A stretch of 64,000 nucleotides of DNA from the NCBI RefSeq assembly GCF_036507355.1, contig NZ_AP027877.1. One strand, 5' to 3'. The stretch is from Escherichia coli. GTDB taxonomy: Bacteria > Pseudomonadota > Gammaproteobacteria > Enterobacterales > Enterobacteriaceae. The notes below the pieces were generated by a model. That model saw nothing but the letters and a program-made list of their open reading frames with translations, was not told where the DNA came from and made no database searches. Made by a program: the position numbers and the translations under genes. This document shows positions 2,571 to 52,398 of this stretch, in pieces. Every line of letters begins with the position of its first letter. The first letter of the stretch is position 1.

Positions 2571-3914
2571 ATGTTAAACAGTATTTTAGTCATACTCTGC
2601 TTGATCGCTGTAAGTGCGTTCTTCTCGATGTCCGAGATCTCGCTTGCCGCCTCACGCAAAATCAAACTTAAACTGCTGGCTGATGAAGGCAATATAAATG
2701 CCCAACGCGTTCTGAATATGCAGGAAAATCCCGGCATGTTCTTTACCGTGGTCCAAATCGGTCTGAACGCAGTGGCGATTCTCGGCGGTATCGTCGGTGA
2801 TGCGGCATTTTCTCCAGCTTTTCACAGCCTGTTCTCCCGCTATATGTCGGCAGAGCTCTCTGAGCAACTGAGCTTTATTCTCTCTTTCTCGTTAGTGACT
2901 GGCATGTTTATCCTGTTTGCGGATTTAACCCCGAAACGCATCGGTATGATTGCGCCAGAAGCTGTGGCTTTGCGTATCATCAACCCGATGCGCTTCTGCC
3001 TGTACGTTTGCACCCCGCTGGTGTGGTTCTTCAACGGCCTGGCGAACATAATCTTCCGTATTTTCAAACTGCCAATGGTACGTAAAGATGACATCACTTC
3101 TGATGACATCTACGCGGTAGTGGAAGCCGGTGCGCTGGCGGGCGTGTTACGTAAACAGGAACACGAGCTGATTGAAAACGTCTTTGAGCTGGAATCCCGT
3201 ACCGTTCCGTCTTCAATGACACCGCGTGAAAACGTGATTTGGTTTGATCTCCACGAAGATGAGCAAAGCCTGAAGAATAAGGTGGCGGAACATCCGCACT
3301 CTAAGTTCCTCGTCTGTAATGAAGATATTGACCACATCATCGGTTATGTCGATTCTAAAGACCTGCTGAACCGCGTGCTGGCTAACCAAAGCTTGGCACT
3401 GAACAGCGGCGTACAAATTCGCAACACGCTGATTGTGCCGGATACGTTAACCCTTTCAGAGGCGTTGGAAAGTTTTAAAACCGCAGGTGAAGACTTCGCG
3501 GTGATCATGAACGAGTACGCGCTGGTGGTGGGGATCATCACCCTCAATGACGTGATGACCACGCTGATGGGCGATCTGGTCGGTCAGGGGCTGGAAGAGC
3601 AGATTGTCGCCCGTGATGAGAACTCATGGCTGATTGACGGCGGCACCCCAATTGACGACGTCATGCGCGTGCTGGATATTGACGAGTTCCCGCAGTCGGG
3701 CAACTACGAAACCATCGGCGGCTTTATGATGTTTATGCTGCGTAAGATCCCGAAACGCACCGATTCGGTGAAATTCGCCGGCTACAAATTTGAAGTGGTG
3801 GATATCGATAACTACCGCATCGACCAGCTGCTGGTGACCCGGATCGACAGCAAGGCCACCGCCCTTTCGCCAAAACTGCCTGACGCTAAAGATAAAGAAG
3901 AAAGCGTCGCGTAA
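2571..3914 (+). CDS. ytfL: UPF0053/CNNM-type inner membrane protein (CBS pair and CorC_HlyC domains)
   Basis: ORF track 447 aa; hydrophobic N-terminus; family call from recognised sequence. Confidence 0.9.
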   Translation: MLNSILVILCLIAVSAFFSMSEISLAASRKIKLKLLADEGNINAQRVLNMQENPGMFFTVVQIGLNAVAILGGIVGDAAFSPAFHSLFSRYMSAELSEQLSFILSFSLVTGMFILFADLTPKRIGMIAPEAVALRIINPMRFCLYVCTPLVWFFNGLANIIFRIFKLPMVRKDDITSDDIYAVVEAGALAGVLRKQEHELIENVFELESRTVPSSMTPRENVIWFDLHEDEQSLKNKVAEHPHSKFLVCNEDIDHIIGYVDSKDLLNRVLANQSLALNSGVQIRNTLIVPDTLTLSEALESFKTAGEDFAVIMNEYALVVGIITLNDVMTTLMGDLVGQGLEEQIVARDENSWLIDGGTPIDDVMRVLDIDEFPQSGNYETIGGFMMFMLRKIPKRTDSVKFAGYKFEVVDIDNYRIDQLLVTRIDSKATALSPKLPDAKDKEESVA

Positions 3915-3930
3915 CCCCCAGAAACATCAA

Positions 3931-3951
3931 CGGCTCCTGAATCAGGAGCCG
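3931..3951. terminator. Hairpin between convergent ytfL and ytfK, probably bidirectional
   Basis: cggctcctg-aat-caggagccg, 9-bp perfect stem. Confidence 0.55.
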
Positions 3952-3956
3952 TCTTA

Positions 3957-3990
3957 TTACTGCATAGCACTTTTTACTGCATAGCACTTT
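3957..3990. repeat. Perfect 17-bp tandem duplication (TTACTGCATAGCACTTT x2)
   Basis: Units at 3957-3973 and 3974-3990 are identical and directly adjacent, ending 2 nt before the ytfK stop codon. Confidence 0.9.
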
Positions 3991-3992
3991 GG

Positions 3993-4199
3993 TTAAGCCA
4001 TCTCTGTTTGCAGACGCATAACCTGACGGTTAACTTCGGACATCACTGACAAATGCAGCTTATCCTTCACTTTTGGGATAAGAATCTTACCCTTATCAAA
4101 TTCAAAAGCGCCAACGTCCTTGATGTATAACCGTCCACGGAACAGGATCTTTACGTACTTCGCCACCTGAAGTGGGTTGTACCGTTGGAAAATTTTCAT
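3993..4199 (-). CDS. ytfK: Small protein YtfK (68 aa)
   Basis: ORF track 3993..4265; internal ATG at 4197-4199 gives [16 protein letters not shown]...; SD ggaga upstream. Confidence 0.9.
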
Positions 4200-4523
4200 T
4201 GTTATCTCCTGCTGAGTATTACGCCTGTGCGGTGCCACAATCGGCCCAACTATTATGAGGCGCAAATTTTAATGCTTAGTGACTATAGACTATCCGGGCA
4301 ATGTTTCCACCGCGTATAACTTTTTTTACCTAAAGGTTACAATTATTCAGAATTATCTTTTTACCGAAGCGCGGTCTTCAGTATAAGCATTCATTTTTCA
4401 TATGATTTGTGCGCTTGACCGCAAACTGGCATCACACTTGCGGGAAATTCGATAAATAGCACATATGATTAAAACTCAGACCCAAGTGGTCGGATCACCT
4501 GCATATCATAAGAAGGAAACACC

Positions 4524-6290: not shown

Positions 6291-7031
6291 TTAGTAAATA
6301 GACACTCTGAACCCCGGATTCAGGAACGACTCGCGCGGAGTGTAATCCAGCGGTTTACCCTGCCAGTCGTGAACATGCGCTCCGGCAGCTGCAGCCACAG
6401 CATGTCCAGCGGCGGTGTCCCAAATATTCGTTGGTCCGAAGCGCGGGTACAGCTGCGCCTGTCCTTCCGCCACCAGGCAGAATTTCAACGAAGAGCCGAT
6501 GGACGTGGTCTGATGTTCGCCAAGCTGTTGCAGATACTCTTTCAGCTCCGCATCTGCATGGGAACGGCTGATAACCACCAGCGGCGGGCGCGCATCGCGG
6601 ACCTGAATCTGCTTGCGCACACCGCACTCTTCTTTCCAGGCCTTGCTTTCTGCCGCGCTGTACATTACGTTCATTACCGGCGCATACACCACACCTAAAA
6701 TCGGTTTGCCATGGTCAATGAGCGCAATGTTAACGGTGAATTCGCCATTACGTTTAATAAACTCTTTCGTACCATCCAGCGGGTCTACCAGCCAGTAACG
6801 CTGCCAGTGCTGACGGACTTCCCAACCAGGAGGATCTTCTTCAGAAAGGACCGGAATATCCGGTGTCAGCGTACGTAAACCGTCCATGATAACGGTGTGT
6901 GCGGCAATATCCGCTGCCGTTACCGGAGAATTGTCCGCTTTGCTGACGACGTCCATCGGTTTCGTCCCGTCGTAGACCTGCATAATGGCATCGCCTGCAT
7001 TCCGTGCAAGCTGGCATACTTGATCTAACAT
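6291..7031 (-). CDS. cysQ: 3'(2'),5'-bisphosphate nucleotidase CysQ
   Basis: ORF track 246 aa; inositol-monophosphatase family, WLVDPLDGT motif. Confidence 0.95.
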
Positions 7032-7222
7032 TTCTCCACCTCGTCTCTGTGAGCGGTGTTAACTTATTGTTTTACTTATACCCTATCATTAATGAATGCG
7101 CCAACTGTGATAGTGTCATCATTTTCAAAGCGTAAAATTGTGGCATTCTTCACTGTTCTATAAGTAAGACGTTTATTCTCCCTTTTCTTTCGTATTCCCG
7201 ATGATAAAAGGATGTCCCTGAT

Positions 7223-7231
7223 GATTAAGTT
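7223..7231. repeat. IS1 target-site duplication, left copy (GATTAAGTT)
   Basis: 9-mer immediately left of IS1 left inverted repeat, identical to 8000-8008. Confidence 0.9.
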
Positions 7232-7286
7232 GGTGATGCTGCCAACTTACTGATTTAGTGTATGATGGTGTTTTTGAGGTGCTCCA

Positions 7287-7562
7287 GTGGCTTCTGTTTC
7301 TATCAGCTGTCCCTCCTGTTCAGCTACTGACGGGGTGGTGCGTAACGGCAAAAGCACCGCCGGACATCAGCGCTATCTCTGCTCTCACTGCCGTAAAACA
7401 TGGCAACTGCAGTTCACTTACACCGCTTCTCAACCCGGTACGCACCAGAAAATCATTGATATGGCCATGAATGGCGTTGGATGCCGGGCAACAGCCCGCA
7501 TTATGGGCATTGGCCTCAACACGATTTTACGTCACTTAAAAAACTCAGGCCGCAGTCGGTAA
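7287..7562 (+). CDS. insA: IS1 InsA
   Basis: ORF track 91 aa, [40 protein letters not shown]... Confidence 0.95.
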
Positions 7563-7984
7563 CCTCGCGCATACAGCCGGGCAGTGACGTCATCGTCTGC
7601 GCGGAAATGGACGAACAGTGGGGCTATGTCGGGGCTAAATCGCGCCAGCGCTGGCTGTTTTACGCGTATGACAGGCTCCGGAAGACGGTTGTTGCGCACG
7701 TATTCGGTGAACGCACGATGGCGACGCTGGGGCGTCTTATGAGCCTGCTGTCACCCTTTGACGTGGTGATATGGATGACGGATGGCTGGCCGCTGTATGA
7801 ATCCCGCCTGAAGGGAAAGCTGCACGTAATCAGCAAGCGATATACGCAGCGAATTGAGCGGCATAACCTGAATCTGAGGCAGCACCTGGCACGGCTGGGA
7901 CGGAAGTCGCTGTCGTTCTCAAAATCGGTGGAGCTGCATGACAAAGTCATCGGGCATTATCTGAACATAAAACACTATCAATAA
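7481..7984 (+). CDS. insB: IS1 InsB reading frame (expressed as InsAB' by -1 frameshift)
   Basis: ORF track 167 aa overlapping insA 3' end in the -1 frame. Confidence 0.9.
7538..7544 (+). other. IS1 programmed -1 ribosomal frameshift motif A AAA AAC
   Basis: ttaaaaaac lies in the insA frame (L-K-N) within the insA/insB overlap. Confidence 0.8.
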
Positions 7985-7999
7985 GTTGGAGTCATTACC

Positions 8000-8008
8000 G
8001 ATTAAGTT
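8000..8008. repeat. IS1 target-site duplication, right copy (GATTAAGTT)
   Basis: Identical 9-mer immediately right of IS1 right inverted repeat. Confidence 0.9.
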
Positions 8009-9954
8009 TAGCGCAACGCTCCTGGCCACGCTGATTGCCGCCAGTGTGAATGCAGCGACGGTCGATCTGCGTATCATGGAAACCACTGATCTGCATAGCA
8101 ACATGATGGATTTCGATTATTACAAAGACACCGCCACGGAAAAATTCGGACTGGTACGTACGGCAAGCCTGATTAACGATGCCCGCAATGAAGTGAAAAA
8201 CAGCGTACTGGTCGATAACGGCGATTTGATTCAGGGGAGTCCGCTGGCCGATTACATGTCGGAGAAAGGATTAAAAGCAGGTGATGTTCATCCGGTTTAT
8301 AAGGCGCTGAATACGCTGGATTATACGGTCGGTACACTCGGCAATCATGAATTTAACTACGGTCTGGATTACCTGAAAAATGCGCTGGCGGGAGCGAAAT
8401 TCCCTTATGTAAATGCCAACGTCATTGACGCCAGAACCAAACAGCCAATGTTTACACCGTATTTAATTAAAGATACCGAAGTGGTCGATAAAGACGGAAA
8501 AAAACAGACGCTGAAGATTGGCTATATTGGCGTCGTGCCGCCGCAAATCATGGGCTGGGATAAAGCTAATTTATCCGGAAAAGTGACGGTGAATGATATT
8601 ACCGAAACCGTGCGCAAATACGTGCCTGAAATGCGCGAGAAAGGTGCCGATGTCGTTGTCGTTCTGGCGCATTCCGGGCTGTCTGCCGATCCGTATAAAG
8701 TAATGGCGGAAAACTCAGTTTATTACCTCAGTGAAATTCCGGGCGTTAACGCCATTATGTTTGGCCATGCTCACGCCGTTTTCCCGGGTAAAGATTTTGC
8801 TGATATCGAAGGGGCTGATATCACCAAAGGCACGCTGAATGGTGTTCCGGCGGTAATGCCGGGCATGTGGGGCGATCATCTTGGTGTGGTCGACTTACAA
8901 CTCAGTAATGACAGCGGTAAATGGCAGGTGACGCAAGCGAAAGCGGAAGCACGACCGATTTACGACATCGCTAATAAAAAATCCCTCGCGGCGGAAGACA
9001 GCAAGCTGGTAGAAACACTCAAAGCCGATCACGATGCCACACGCCAGTTCGTCAGCAAGCCAATCGGTAAATCTGCCGACAATATGTATAGCTATCTGGC
9101 GCTGGTGCAGGACGATCCGACCGTGCAGGTGGTGAACAACGCGCAAAAAGCGTATGTCGAGCATTACATTCAGGGCGATCCGGATCTGGCAAAACTGCCG
9201 GTGCTTTCAGCTGCCGCACCGTTTAAAGTTGGTGGTCGCAAAAATGACCCGGCAAGCTATGTAGAGGTGGAAAAAGGTCAGCTGACTTTCCGTAATGCCG
9301 CCGATCTTTATCTCTATCCCAATACGCTGATTGTGGTGAAAGCCAGCGGTAAAGAGGTGAAAGAGTGGCTGGAGTGCTCCGCCGGACAGTTTAACCAGAT
9401 TGATCCCAACAGCACGAAACCACAGTCACTCATCAACTGGGACGGTTTCCGCACCTATAACTTTGATGTTATTGATGGTGTGAATTATCAGATTGATGTT
9501 ACCCAGCCCGCCCGTTATGACGGCGAGTGCCAGATGATTAATGCCAATGCGGAAAGGATTAAGAACCTGACCTTTAATGGCAAGCCGATTGATCCGAACG
9601 CTATGTTCCTCGTTGCCACCAATAACTATCGCGCTTACGGCGGCAAATTTGCCGGTACGGGCGACAGCCATATCGCTTTTGCTTCACCGGATGAGAACCG
9701 CTCGGTGCTGGCAGCGTGGATTGCTGATGAGTCGAAACGTGCGGGGGAAATTCACCCGGCGGCAGATAACAACTGGCGTTTAGCACCGATAGCTGGCGAT
9801 AAGAAACTGGATATCCGTTTCGAAACCTCTCCGTCAGATAAAGCCGCAGCGTTTATTAAAGAGAAAGGGCAATATCCGATGAATAAAGTCGCGACCGATG
9901 ATATCGGGTTTGCGATTTATCAGGTGGATTTGAGTAAGTAAAACACTTCTTTTT

Positions 9955-10065
9955 CGGCCTATAAATCATCAATCGCATCCGGCATTTATTGGCGGATGCG
10001 ATGCTGGTGCATCTTATCCGCCCTACAAGTCATACACCGTAGGCCGCGTATCCGGCAGTTATGCC
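9955..10065. repeat. REP/BIME-like palindromic units downstream of cpdB
   Basis: gcatccggcatttattggcggatgcg and gtaggccgcgtatccggcag type palindromes. Confidence 0.55.
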
Positions 10066-10439
10066 GCACGTTCATCCCGCACCGCTAACACCTCGGGCAA
10101 ATTCAACTCAATCCAGTCCGCCAGTGCAGCAACCTTTTCGCTCACCTGCTCGCCCAGCGGCGTGAGGCTATATTCCACATGCGGCGGCACCACCGGATAC
10201 GCGATACGGTTAAGAAAACCATCCTGCTCTAGCGCCTGTAACGACTGCGCAAGCATCTTTTCACTCACCCCGCCCATTTTGCGCCGCAGGTCGCTAAAGC
10301 GATGAGTACCTTCGCGTAGCGCCACCAGAATCAACACCCCCCAACGGCTGGTGACGTGTTTCAACACCTCGCGCGACGGGCACTGTTCCGCAAAGAGATT
10401 ACCCTCTTTCAGTTGTTGCGACAGGCTAACCTGACTCAT
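10059..10439 (-). CDS. ytfH: HxlR-family transcriptional regulator
   Basis: ORF track 10059..10550; internal ATG at 10437-10439 gives MSQVSLSQQLKEGNLFAEQCPSREVL..., 126 aa. Confidence 0.9.
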   Translation of the reverse strand: MSQVSLSQQLKEGNLFAEQCPSREVLKHVTSRWGVLILVALREGTHRFSDLRRKMGGVSEKMLAQSLQALEQDGFLNRIAYPVVPPHVEYSLTPLGEQVSEKVAALADWIELNLPEVLAVRDERAA

Positions 10440-10527
10440 TTCATACTTACCTTTTTGTATGTACTTACTAAAAGTAAGTTTAGGTGTTAGCGTATTTAAA
10501 CACAAGACAAAACGATGGAGACTTCCC

Positions 10528-11388
10528 ATGATCGCTATTACTGGTGCCACTGGCCAACTTGGTCACTATGTTATTGAATCCTTGATGAAAACGGTTCCTG
10601 CCAGCCAAATAGTGGCTATCGTTCGTAATCCGGCAAAAGCCCAGGCCCTGTCAGCACAAGGCATTACCGTGCGTCAGGCTGACTACGGCGATGAAGCCGC
10701 ACTGACATCTGCACTTCAGGGAGTGGAAAAACTACTGCTGATCTCTTCCAGCGAAGTGGGTCAACGTGCCCCGCAGCATCGTAATGTTATTAATGCCGCA
10801 AAGACGGCTGGCGTGAAATTTATCGCTTATACCAGCCTGCTACATGCAGATACCTCCCCGCTCGGCCTCGCCGATGAGCACATTGAGACGGAGAAAATGT
10901 TGGCTGATTCTGGCATCGTTTACACCCTGCTGCGCAACGGCTGGTACAGCGAAAACTACCTCGCCAGCGCCCCGGCAGCACTGGAACACGGCGTATTTAT
11001 CGGTGCGGCGGGCGATGGCAAAATCGCCTCAGCAACGCGGGCAGATTATGCGGCAGCTGCGGCACGCGTGATTAGCGAAGCCGGTCACGAAGGCAAGGTT
11101 TACGAACTGGCGGGCGATAGTGCCTGGACGTTGACACAGTTAGCGGCAGAGCTGACCAAACAGAGCGGCAAACAGGTTACCTATCAAAATCTGAGCGAAG
11201 CCGATTTCGCCGCGGCACTGAAAAGCGTCGGACTGCCCGACGGACTGGCGGATATGCTGGCGGATTCTGACGTTGGCGCATCGAAAGGCGGTCTATTTGA
11301 TGACAGCAAAACGCTTAGCAAATTGATTGGCCGCCCAACGACAACGTTAGCCGAAAGCGTAAGCCATCTTTTTAATGTTAATAACTAG
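10528..11388 (+). CDS. qorB: NAD(P)H:quinone oxidoreductase (NmrA-like)
   Basis: ORF track 10459..11388; ATG at 10528 gives MIAITGATGQLGHYVIESL... (Rossmann GxxGxxG); SD gatggag. Confidence 0.9.
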   Translation: MIAITGATGQLGHYVIESLMKTVPASQIVAIVRNPAKAQALSAQGITVRQADYGDEAALTSALQGVEKLLLISSSEVGQRAPQHRNVINAAKTAGVKFIAYTSLLHADTSPLGLADEHIETEKMLADSGIVYTLLRNGWYSENYLASAPAALEHGVFIGAAGDGKIASATRADYAAAAARVISEAGHEGKVYELAGDSAWTLTQLAAELTKQSGKQVTYQNLSEADFAAALKSVGLPDGLADMLADSDVGASKGGLFDDSKTLSKLIGRPTTTLAESVSHLFNVNN

Positions 11389-19040: not shown

Positions 19041-19454
<414 letters not shown>

Positions 19455-19762
19455 TTATTCAGCCTCCTGTCTGGGTCAGCCGAATCCCGGGGAGGCAAGG
19501 AACGTGTTAAAGGTCGGCTGAAAAATGACGCGTTATAGTACTTGTATGCCCCGCTAAACTCAAGGGCGGAGCAGAAATAAATCTCCCCTTTCGCAAATAA
19601 CCTCTAAACCGCTGATTTGAAGTTCATCACATTCCGTCACAGTGTTTTTTCGAACAACTGCATCAGAAATGGTCACCATCAACTTCTTTATCATTGATTA
19701 AAATTAAATCAGAAGATCATCACAGAGGAGAGCACATAAAGTCAGCCGTCGAGGAGGTATCT

Positions 19763-51620: not shown

Positions 51621-51889
51621 TTCATCCACAGCTTGTGAATAAAAATAAAAACGCATTGCAATTCAAGACGAATAAAATCGTCAAGTGATCGACTCGACAA
51701 AACGGAATCTTAATTTTTAACTTATCTATCAATAGGTTAAAAAAATACTATTCACCGTGCGAAGTTTCTTTGAAATTAAGATTACAGCCTGAGGCTGTGG
51801 ATAACTCTGTTTACAAGAGTTTGTCAGAGACAACAAAAACCAGCAATAACGCATCGCGTCGCTGTGGATATTTTATTGAGAGAAGAATT

Positions 51890-51965
<76 letters not shown>

Positions 51966-52000
51966 TTGGGTGGTCTGTGCCTTACAGCACTTTCAAATTT

Positions 52001-52076
<76 letters not shown>

Positions 52077-52112
52077 TTGGGTGGTCTGTGCTTTACAGCA
52101 CTTTTCAAATTT

Positions 52113-52188
<76 letters not shown>

Positions 52189-52398
52189 GTACTACTTAAT
52201 TTTGCTTTCGTAATTTTCGCATTTCTGCGTCGTTACGGGAGGCGCATTATACGAGAAATCTTTCCCTCTGCAACCCCCCTAAAAAATTTTTTTTGAGTTT
52301 TTATCTCAAGTGCTGAAATTATCAGCAAGACGTTCAATTTAGCGTCAAAATCACGCCGCCGCAAGTGGATTCCGGCGCTTACGTGACCAGCAAAAATT

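Follow-up and report, generated by a model that had tools for sequence, protein, structure and literature searches.

The cysQ–cpdB region of this Escherichia coli sequence raises the question of how a complete IS1 element came to lie within the first codons of cpdB, and what has become of the gene behind it. We addressed this in the window, i.e. the whole 64000-nucleotide stretch of DNA that was analysed, for which a first-pass annotation made from the sequence alone was at hand. The reading that we favour, with a probability of approximately 93%, is that an active IS1A-type element entered the 5' end of cpdB in a single, recent and simple transposition, which is expected to have left a null or nearly null allele. 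The insertion site and the element itself comprise the following features.

7221–7231, plus strand: orphaned cpdB start, ATG ATT AAG TT (the native ATG, with 11 nt of the coding sequence)
7223–7231, no strand: left copy of the 9-bp target-site duplication (TSD), GATTAAGTT, abutting the left end of IS1
7232–7999, plus strand: complete IS1 (IS1A-type), 768 bp, co-oriented with cpdB, assigned by sequence identity to annotated IS1A copies
7232–7254, plus strand: left inverted repeat (IRL), GGTGATGCTGCCAACTTACTGAT, an exact match to the canonical end
7239–7266, plus strand: promoter-like site CTGCCA-16-TATGAT, in and beside IRL (consensus scan, 9 of 12 matches)
7287–7562, plus strand: insA, 91 aa, GTG start, repressor and DNA-binding protein (Pfam Zn_ribbon_InsA and HTH_Tnp_IS1)
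7287–7984, plus strand: insAB' transposase, 232 aa via a −1 frameshift, intact (NF033558; Pfam DDE_Tnp_IS1)
7538–7544, plus strand: programmed −1 frameshift site AAAAAAC, its register A AAA AAC checked relative to insA
7977–7999, minus strand: right inverted repeat (IRR), reverse complement GGTAATGACTCCAACTTATTGAT, matching IRL at 18 of 23 positions
8000–8008, no strand: right copy of the 9-bp TSD, GATTAAGTT, abutting the right end of IS1

The first-pass annotation had claimed a complete IS1, and this is what we found: the element has the full 768 bp, canonical ends and intact insA and InsAB', and the slippery site claimed at 7538–7544 is present in the correct register relative to insA. The IRL sequence is unique in the window, where no occurrence would be expected by chance, and the right end of the element at position 7999 reads ...AAGTTGGAGTCATTACC, with the stop codon of the insB' frame (TAA) at 7982–7984. 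The conceptual frameshift product InsAB' contains 232 residues and no internal stops, scores 244.8 bits against the NCBIfam model NF033558 (transpos_IS1; cutoff 100) and carries the Pfam domains PF03811, PF12759 and PF03400 (Zn ribbon, HTH and DDE_Tnp_IS1), the last of these models being covered in full (positions 1–131 of 131, E = 7.5e-78). At the nucleotide level the element is 99.9% identical over 768 bp with many chromosomal and plasmid copies in E. coli that carry the annotation ‘IS1-like element IS1A family’, from which it differs at one position, and six other copies showed between 3 and 10 differing positions without gaps. Its length, its imperfect ends of approximately 23 bp, the insA/insB' overlap with the A6C motif, the domains and the near-identity with known copies all place it within the IS1 family. 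The IS1A and IS1E copies of E. coli K-12, which represent the ‘consensus’ IS1 element, are alike in having 768 bp, the same ends, insA, the A6C motif, a 232-aa InsAB' and TSDs of 8–9 bp (PMC12428005), but the window copy shows a few point differences from them, e.g. an A at 7509 that gives InsA an isoleucine for a valine, and it lies at another genomic location. The copy is complete and, as far as can be judged from its sequence, apparently functional, and the promoter-like site at 7239–7266, the one σ70-like site that the scan found, is positioned as expected and probably represents the weak IS1 promoter. Inside the element, the plus strand contains no predicted intrinsic terminator.

Both ends of the element abut the same 9-mer, as had been claimed, and the two copies at 7223–7231 and 8000–8008 are a perfect match. 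This 9-mer occurs three times in the window, against 0.35 occurrences expected, and the computed probability that two given flanking 9-mers are identical by chance is 3.8e-6. The duplication falls within the 8–9 bp that IS1 produces, is perfect on both sides and is reduced to a single copy in relatives that carry the empty site. In the mechanism that we propose, the DDE transposase InsAB' would have cut the target GATTAAGTT (nt 3–11 of cpdB) with a 9-bp stagger, and repair of the resulting gaps would have left the flanking direct repeat. The insertion had been described as lying after codon 3 of cpdB; the location stands, but the exact point is after nt 11 of the coding sequence, two bases inside codon 4 (TTT). 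The size increase across cysQ–cpdB, previously given as 768 bp, is corrected to 777 bp (768 bp of IS1 and 9 bp of TSD).

Beyond the element, the region holds the body of cpdB and its neighbours.

6291–7031, minus strand: cysQ, 3'(2'),5'-bisphosphate nucleotidase, 246 aa, intact and divergent from cpdB (NF008182)
7098–7220, minus strand: match to the ES239 sRNA in the cysQ–cpdB intergenic region (Rfam RF02756)
7986–9941, plus strand: hybrid ORF of 651 aa, in which TTG and four IS1-derived codons (MESLP) are fused in frame to cpdB codons 2–647
10059–10550, minus strand: ytfH, the next gene after cpdB, convergent with it

The product encoded by 7986–9938 is clearly CpdB, as it matches the equivalog models over their full length and above the curated cutoffs (1246 bits against 883 for TIGR01390, and 1209 bits against 486 for NF006938). 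When the window's CpdB was rebuilt without the insertion, it differed from that of L004, one of the very close relatives described below, by a single residue (T502I), with no frameshift or stop codon. CysQ likewise scores 525 bits against NF008182 (cutoff 379), and both flanks are collinear with the usual cysQ–cpdB–ytfH order.

The coding sequence of cpdB is, then, otherwise intact, and the damage concerns its expression. The first-pass annotation was right in stating that the promoter, RBS and first codons have been split from the remainder of the gene: between everything up to 7231, including the ATG, and the sequence from codon 4 on (starting at 8009) there now lie 777 bp of IS1 and TSD, and there is no contiguous run from promoter, RBS and ATG into the signal peptide and mature CpdB. 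On translation, the truncated native start yields a 10-codon ORF (MIKLVMLPTY*, 7221–7253) with its stop codon inside IRL. The cpdB promoter, the native SD (AAGGA, −5.7 kcal/mol with the anti-SD) and the ATG would now drive this short ORF, the same promoter would also feed transcription into insA/insAB', and the remaining 1933 bp of cpdB, starting 777 bp further on, would be left without a promoter, RBS or canonical start of its own. As the expression signals now lie 777 bp away from an otherwise intact gene, CpdB is most likely absent or present only in traces, and the periplasmic 2',3'-cyclic-nucleotide phosphodiesterase/3'-nucleotidase activity is expected to be lost.

The classical polar insertions of IS1 in gal and lac likewise inactivate a gene from a position close to the 5' end of its transcription unit. 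The present case differs from those insertions in that cpdB forms a monocistronic unit and is followed by a convergent gene, ytfH, so that polarity on downstream genes is not expected. A consensus scan found no outward or hybrid σ70-like promoter at the right end of IS1. The motif TTGGAG (7986–7991), considered by eye as an outward promoter element, was rejected, as there is no usable −10 element 16–18 bp downstream of it.

If CpdB is indeed missing from the periplasm, the isolate is predicted to make no use of 2',3'-cyclic nucleotides or 3'-nucleotides through this enzyme. CpdB also hydrolyses cyclic dinucleotides (PMC4905662, PMC7922932, PMC9958556), and the isolate is similarly predicted not to degrade extracellular cyclic dinucleotides with it.

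The alternative that survives best, although we consider it unlikely, is that the allele is a hypomorph and not a null, with transcripts from the cpdB and IS1 promoters reading through the co-oriented element and yielding a low level of exportable CpdB. Two routes can be envisaged. In the first, termination of InsAB' translation would be followed by reinitiation at UUG 7986, giving MESLPIKF...; in the second, an SD-directed start at the in-frame AUU 8001 would give (M)KFSATLL..., with a nearly native signal peptide. The insB stop codon at 7982–7984 and the in-frame TTG 2 nt beyond it, at 7986, were both confirmed, and this TTG opens the 651-aa ORF; being in frame with cpdB and so close to the insAB' stop codon, it is suitably placed for the first route. 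The second route could draw on a GGAG at 7988–7991, supplied by the right end of IS1, which lies 9 nt before ATT 8001 (the native codon 2 of cpdB) and has a pairing energy of −5.9 kcal/mol with the anti-SD, compared with −5.7 kcal/mol for the native SD. In addition, the element is co-oriented with cpdB and has no predicted plus-strand intrinsic terminator, the signal peptide keeps its hydrophobic core and its cleavage region, and upstream genomic transcription has been found to enter IS1 measurably (PMC12428005).

However, each route has a serious weakness. TTG 7986 is essentially devoid of an SD (−0.3 kcal/mol over the 20 nt upstream), it would be accessible almost exclusively to ribosomes that have just finished InsAB', itself the product of a rare −1 frameshift, and the TTG hybrid has an n-region with a net charge of 0 in place of +1. 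For the second route, AUU is a very weak initiator in E. coli. By textbook accounts IS1 exerts strong polarity whichever way round it is inserted, which argues against both routes. The first-pass annotation had called residual expression ‘conceivable’, which was apt caution for a start codon that is in frame but so poorly provided with an SD. Because of the in-frame TTG at 7986 and the SD-like GGAG before ATT 8001, some CpdB from read-through transcripts is possible, from either start, at a level predicted to be very low. We retain the null or near-null allele as the expected outcome of the transposition.

We also searched 5426 complete E. coli genomes for IS1 elsewhere in cpdB. A co-oriented IS1 in or beside the gene was found in 62 of them, most of which belong to the DH1/DH5α/JM109/XL1-Blue laboratory lineage, and mapping of the junctions resolved eight separate co-oriented sites within cpdB, none of them at the window's site.

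FLI21: cpdB nt ~299, TSD CACCCGGTC
ETEC O6:H16: cpdB nt ~407, TSD GAAATTCCC
KL53: cpdB nt ~437, no TSD, with an adjacent IS1-mediated deletion to yjfZ
EA7 and SL124: cpdB nt ~543, TSD TCGTGCCG
NT1F31: cpdB nt ~574, TSD AAGCTAATT
PSS-08-1 and GZ2408P: cpdB nt ~600, TSD GTGAATGAT
MLI104K1: cpdB nt ~1905, TSD GTCGCGACC
DH1 lineage: cpdB nt ~1937, 8-bp TSD GATTTGAG

A synthetic query in which the IS1 segment was turned round retrieved a further seven genomes with IS1 in or beside cpdB in the opposite orientation, representing approximately five events, again with none at the window's site. Excluding that of the window, this amounts to some 13 independent IS1 events in or beside cpdB among the 5426 genomes.

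The DH1-lineage allele resembles that of the window in that an IS1A-type element, co-oriented and flanked by a TSD, interrupts cpdB. The gene carries a pseudogene annotation there and figures in the list of genes mutated in strains of this lineage (PMC11148124). However, the DH1-lineage insertion lies 7 bases from the 3' end of the 1944-nt gene and alters only the last residues, whereas the window insertion, at nt 11, removes all of the expression signals. The DH1 copy, which derives from K-12 IS1, differs from the window element at three positions. Among the natural alleles, those of FLI21, ETEC O6:H16, EA7/SL124, NT1F31, PSS-08-1/GZ2408P and MLI104K1 each have their own TSD of 8–9 bp, as does the window, but they lie between nt ~299 and ~1905 and some involve other IS1 variants (IS1B and IS1X2, 94–99% identity). 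In RefSeq the natural cpdB::IS1 alleles are mostly annotated as split or partial cpdB, i.e. as pseudogenes; MLI104K1 is an exception, its IS1 being close to the 3' end and its cpdB recorded as a complete coding sequence.

This recurrence of insertions bears on a second alternative, which we regard as improbable, namely that the event was adaptive, either because loss of CpdB is favoured in some niches or because the insertion brought an advantage through its effect on the divergent ES239/cysQ unit. The first version can point to the approximately eight co-oriented sites in cpdB and the seven opposite-orientation genomes among the 5426, although these are raw counts for cpdB alone, not an enrichment over the background IS1 density, and most of the affected genomes come from one laboratory lineage. 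Loss of CpdB is also an awkward candidate for selection in that cpdB is reported to be pro-virulent, not anti-virulent (PMC9958556), the reports concerning avian pathogenic E. coli and Salmonella (PMC9958556, PMC4905662).

The second version rests on a feature that the first-pass annotation did not mention. The ES239 match scores 157.4 bits against a gathering threshold of 62 and covers model positions 1–123 of 123; it has the orientation of cysQ, its 5' end (7220) is the base adjoining the cpdB ATG, and IS1 starts, with its left end, 11 bp upstream of this base. Beyond the ES239 −11 position, the native upstream sequence has given way to IS1. Should ES239 be a primary transcript, its −35 region would have lain in the first cpdB codons and would now consist of IRL sequence. 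Against this, a consensus scan across the empty site, taken from L004, predicted no σ70-like promoter for ES239/cysQ, and no function for ES239 is documented in the literature that we searched.

A related question is the activity of the inserted copy. Since the element points in the same direction as cpdB, the promoter of that gene is expected to read into insA/insAB', and for the K-12 copies it has been reported that upstream genomic transcription raises both insAB' transcription and transposition (PMC12428005). Machida et al. (1983), as cited in that paper, are credited with the finding that read-through repressed cointegration. Read-in could raise or lower the activity of the window copy. 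The broader proposal, in which cpdB is a preferred or selected target of IS1, the 5' insertion rewires the ES239/cysQ leader and the cpdB promoter over insA/insAB' makes the copy unusually active, seems to us improbable, and a simple transposition into cpdB remains the reading that we prefer.

The age of that transposition can be approached from the empty site, which we rebuilt by deleting 7232–8008 (IS1 and one copy of the repeat). An 80-mer spanning the healed site matched exactly in seven independent loci, L001–L007. Two of these, L004 (ENA ERZ27315411) and L005 (Logan SRR31122001), were retrieved via the window's YtfI allele, which is rare (18 contigs, all eight of the places shown being from ENA or Logan). 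L004 and L005 are 99.94–99.99% identical with the window over 7231 bp of the left flank and 4857 bp of the right flank, their left and right alignments have precisely the 9-bp target in common, and both carry the 9-mer as a single copy and encode CpdB as an unbroken 647-aa protein. By comparison, the best flank identities among the complete E. coli genomes were 98.7% (over 8–20 kb) and 99.0% (over 30–55 kb). Because the empty site is carried by relatives this similar on both flanks, the insertion is, by sequence comparison, recent and strain-specific, and its absence from relatives of approximately 99.95% identity implies recent movement of IS1. On the same comparison, the event would post-date the split from L004 and L005, and cpdB appears not to have decayed since.

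These flanks also tell against the idea that an IS1 copy from elsewhere was misplaced at cpdB by a repeat-induced misjoin in the assembly, a very remote prospect even though nearly all E. coli carry IS1 in multiple copies (median of approximately 10–11 places per genome) and the exact junction occurs in no other public sequence searched, because a misjoin would give neither a perfect 9-bp target duplication at both ends nor flanks that rebuild the native sequence to the base, and the cysQ–cpdB–ytfH order is normal on both sides.

Queries of 160 bp spanning the window's junctions gave no single-piece match in the 5426 complete RefSeq E. coli genomes, and all of the full-coverage hits proved to be IS1 at other positions in cpdB. 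The exact 36-mer of the left junction had no match in the GTDB species representatives or in the JGI metagenome contigs, and exact-protein look-ups of the 651-aa hybrid ORF and of the truncated product starting at ATG 8076 returned nothing on record. The literature searched for the window's cpdB::IS1 allele yielded the JM109/XL1-Blue cpdB lesion and otherwise nothing but unrelated passages. The insertion allele is new, whereas the kind of event, a simple IS1 insertion with a 9-bp TSD that disrupts a gene, is thoroughly known; it is ordinary and reveals no new biology of IS1 or cpdB. Its use is mainly in strain bookkeeping, for which it offers a clean and datable marker relative to the 99.95% identical relatives, and it points to an IS1A-type element that has recently been active in the window's lineage.

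Insertion of IS1 into cpdB is a repeated event in E. coli, as a survey of cpdB alone found further copies in other strains (RefSeq loci L001, L003 and L012-L017, and genome matches H153-H159). Eight sites of IS1 co-oriented with the gene were mapped, among them those of the DH1/DH5alpha/JM109/XL1-Blue laboratory lineage and of the ETEC O6:H16 lineage, and each has its own target-site duplication of 8-9 bp, with the exception of KL53; in seven genomes the element lies in the opposite orientation. The KL53 copy, at about nucleotide 437 of cpdB, has no target-site duplication and is followed on its right flank by yjfZ and then by rplI-rpsR-priB-rpsF, which together indicate an IS1-mediated deletion that took out what remained of cpdB and extended through cycA and its neighbours. 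The gene ytfI, which flanks cysQ on the side away from cpdB, is interrupted by IS1 in E. coli E8 and, going by annotation, likewise in MB50; comparison of the flanks at both ends of the E8 element did not reveal a clean target-site duplication.

IS1 elements in the comparison loci
L013 (KL53 locus), 3507-4274: IS1 in cpdB
L002 (E8 locus), 2003-2770: IS1 interrupting ytfI

The lineage from which the window derives appears to be poorly represented among finished genomes. Its flanking DNA has a best identity of 98.7-99.0% to any of the 5426 complete E. coli genomes, and its 303-amino-acid YtfI allele occurs in only 18 contigs, the eight places listed being in ENA or Logan. Two contigs, L006 and L007, are 99.96-99.98% identical with the window, and in both the match breaks inside cpdB at window coordinate 8789, beyond which L006 continues into an inverted segment (9252 to 8703). 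Either the assembly folds back on itself at this point, or a very close relative carries a structural breakpoint (an IS or an inversion).

Counterparts of window 8000-9252
L006, 1-1334
L007, 1-790

The cysQ-cpdB intergenic region of the window also contains a full-length Rfam match to the sRNA ES239, in the orientation of cysQ. The left end of IS1 lies 11 bp from the 5' end of ES239, so that any promoter elements upstream of -11 are now IS1 sequence. Promoter prediction at the empty site, i.e. the junction without IS1, returned none, and we found no literature on ES239. Elsewhere in the window, three tandem tRNA genes (repeat family D1, with a period of approximately 111 bp; three Rfam tRNA matches) occupy a position compatible with the E. 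coli glyV-glyX-glyY cluster and are a candidate for it. The remaining Rfam matches, to ES036 (CssrF), STnc450 and the RpsF leader, are all ordinary for this chromosomal region.

RNA features of the window
7098-7220, minus strand: ES239 sRNA
51888-52221, minus strand: three tandem tRNA genes
2330-2509 (near 2.3-2.5 kb), plus strand: ES036 (CssrF) and STnc450 sRNAs
19434-19518 (19.4 kb), minus strand: RpsF leader
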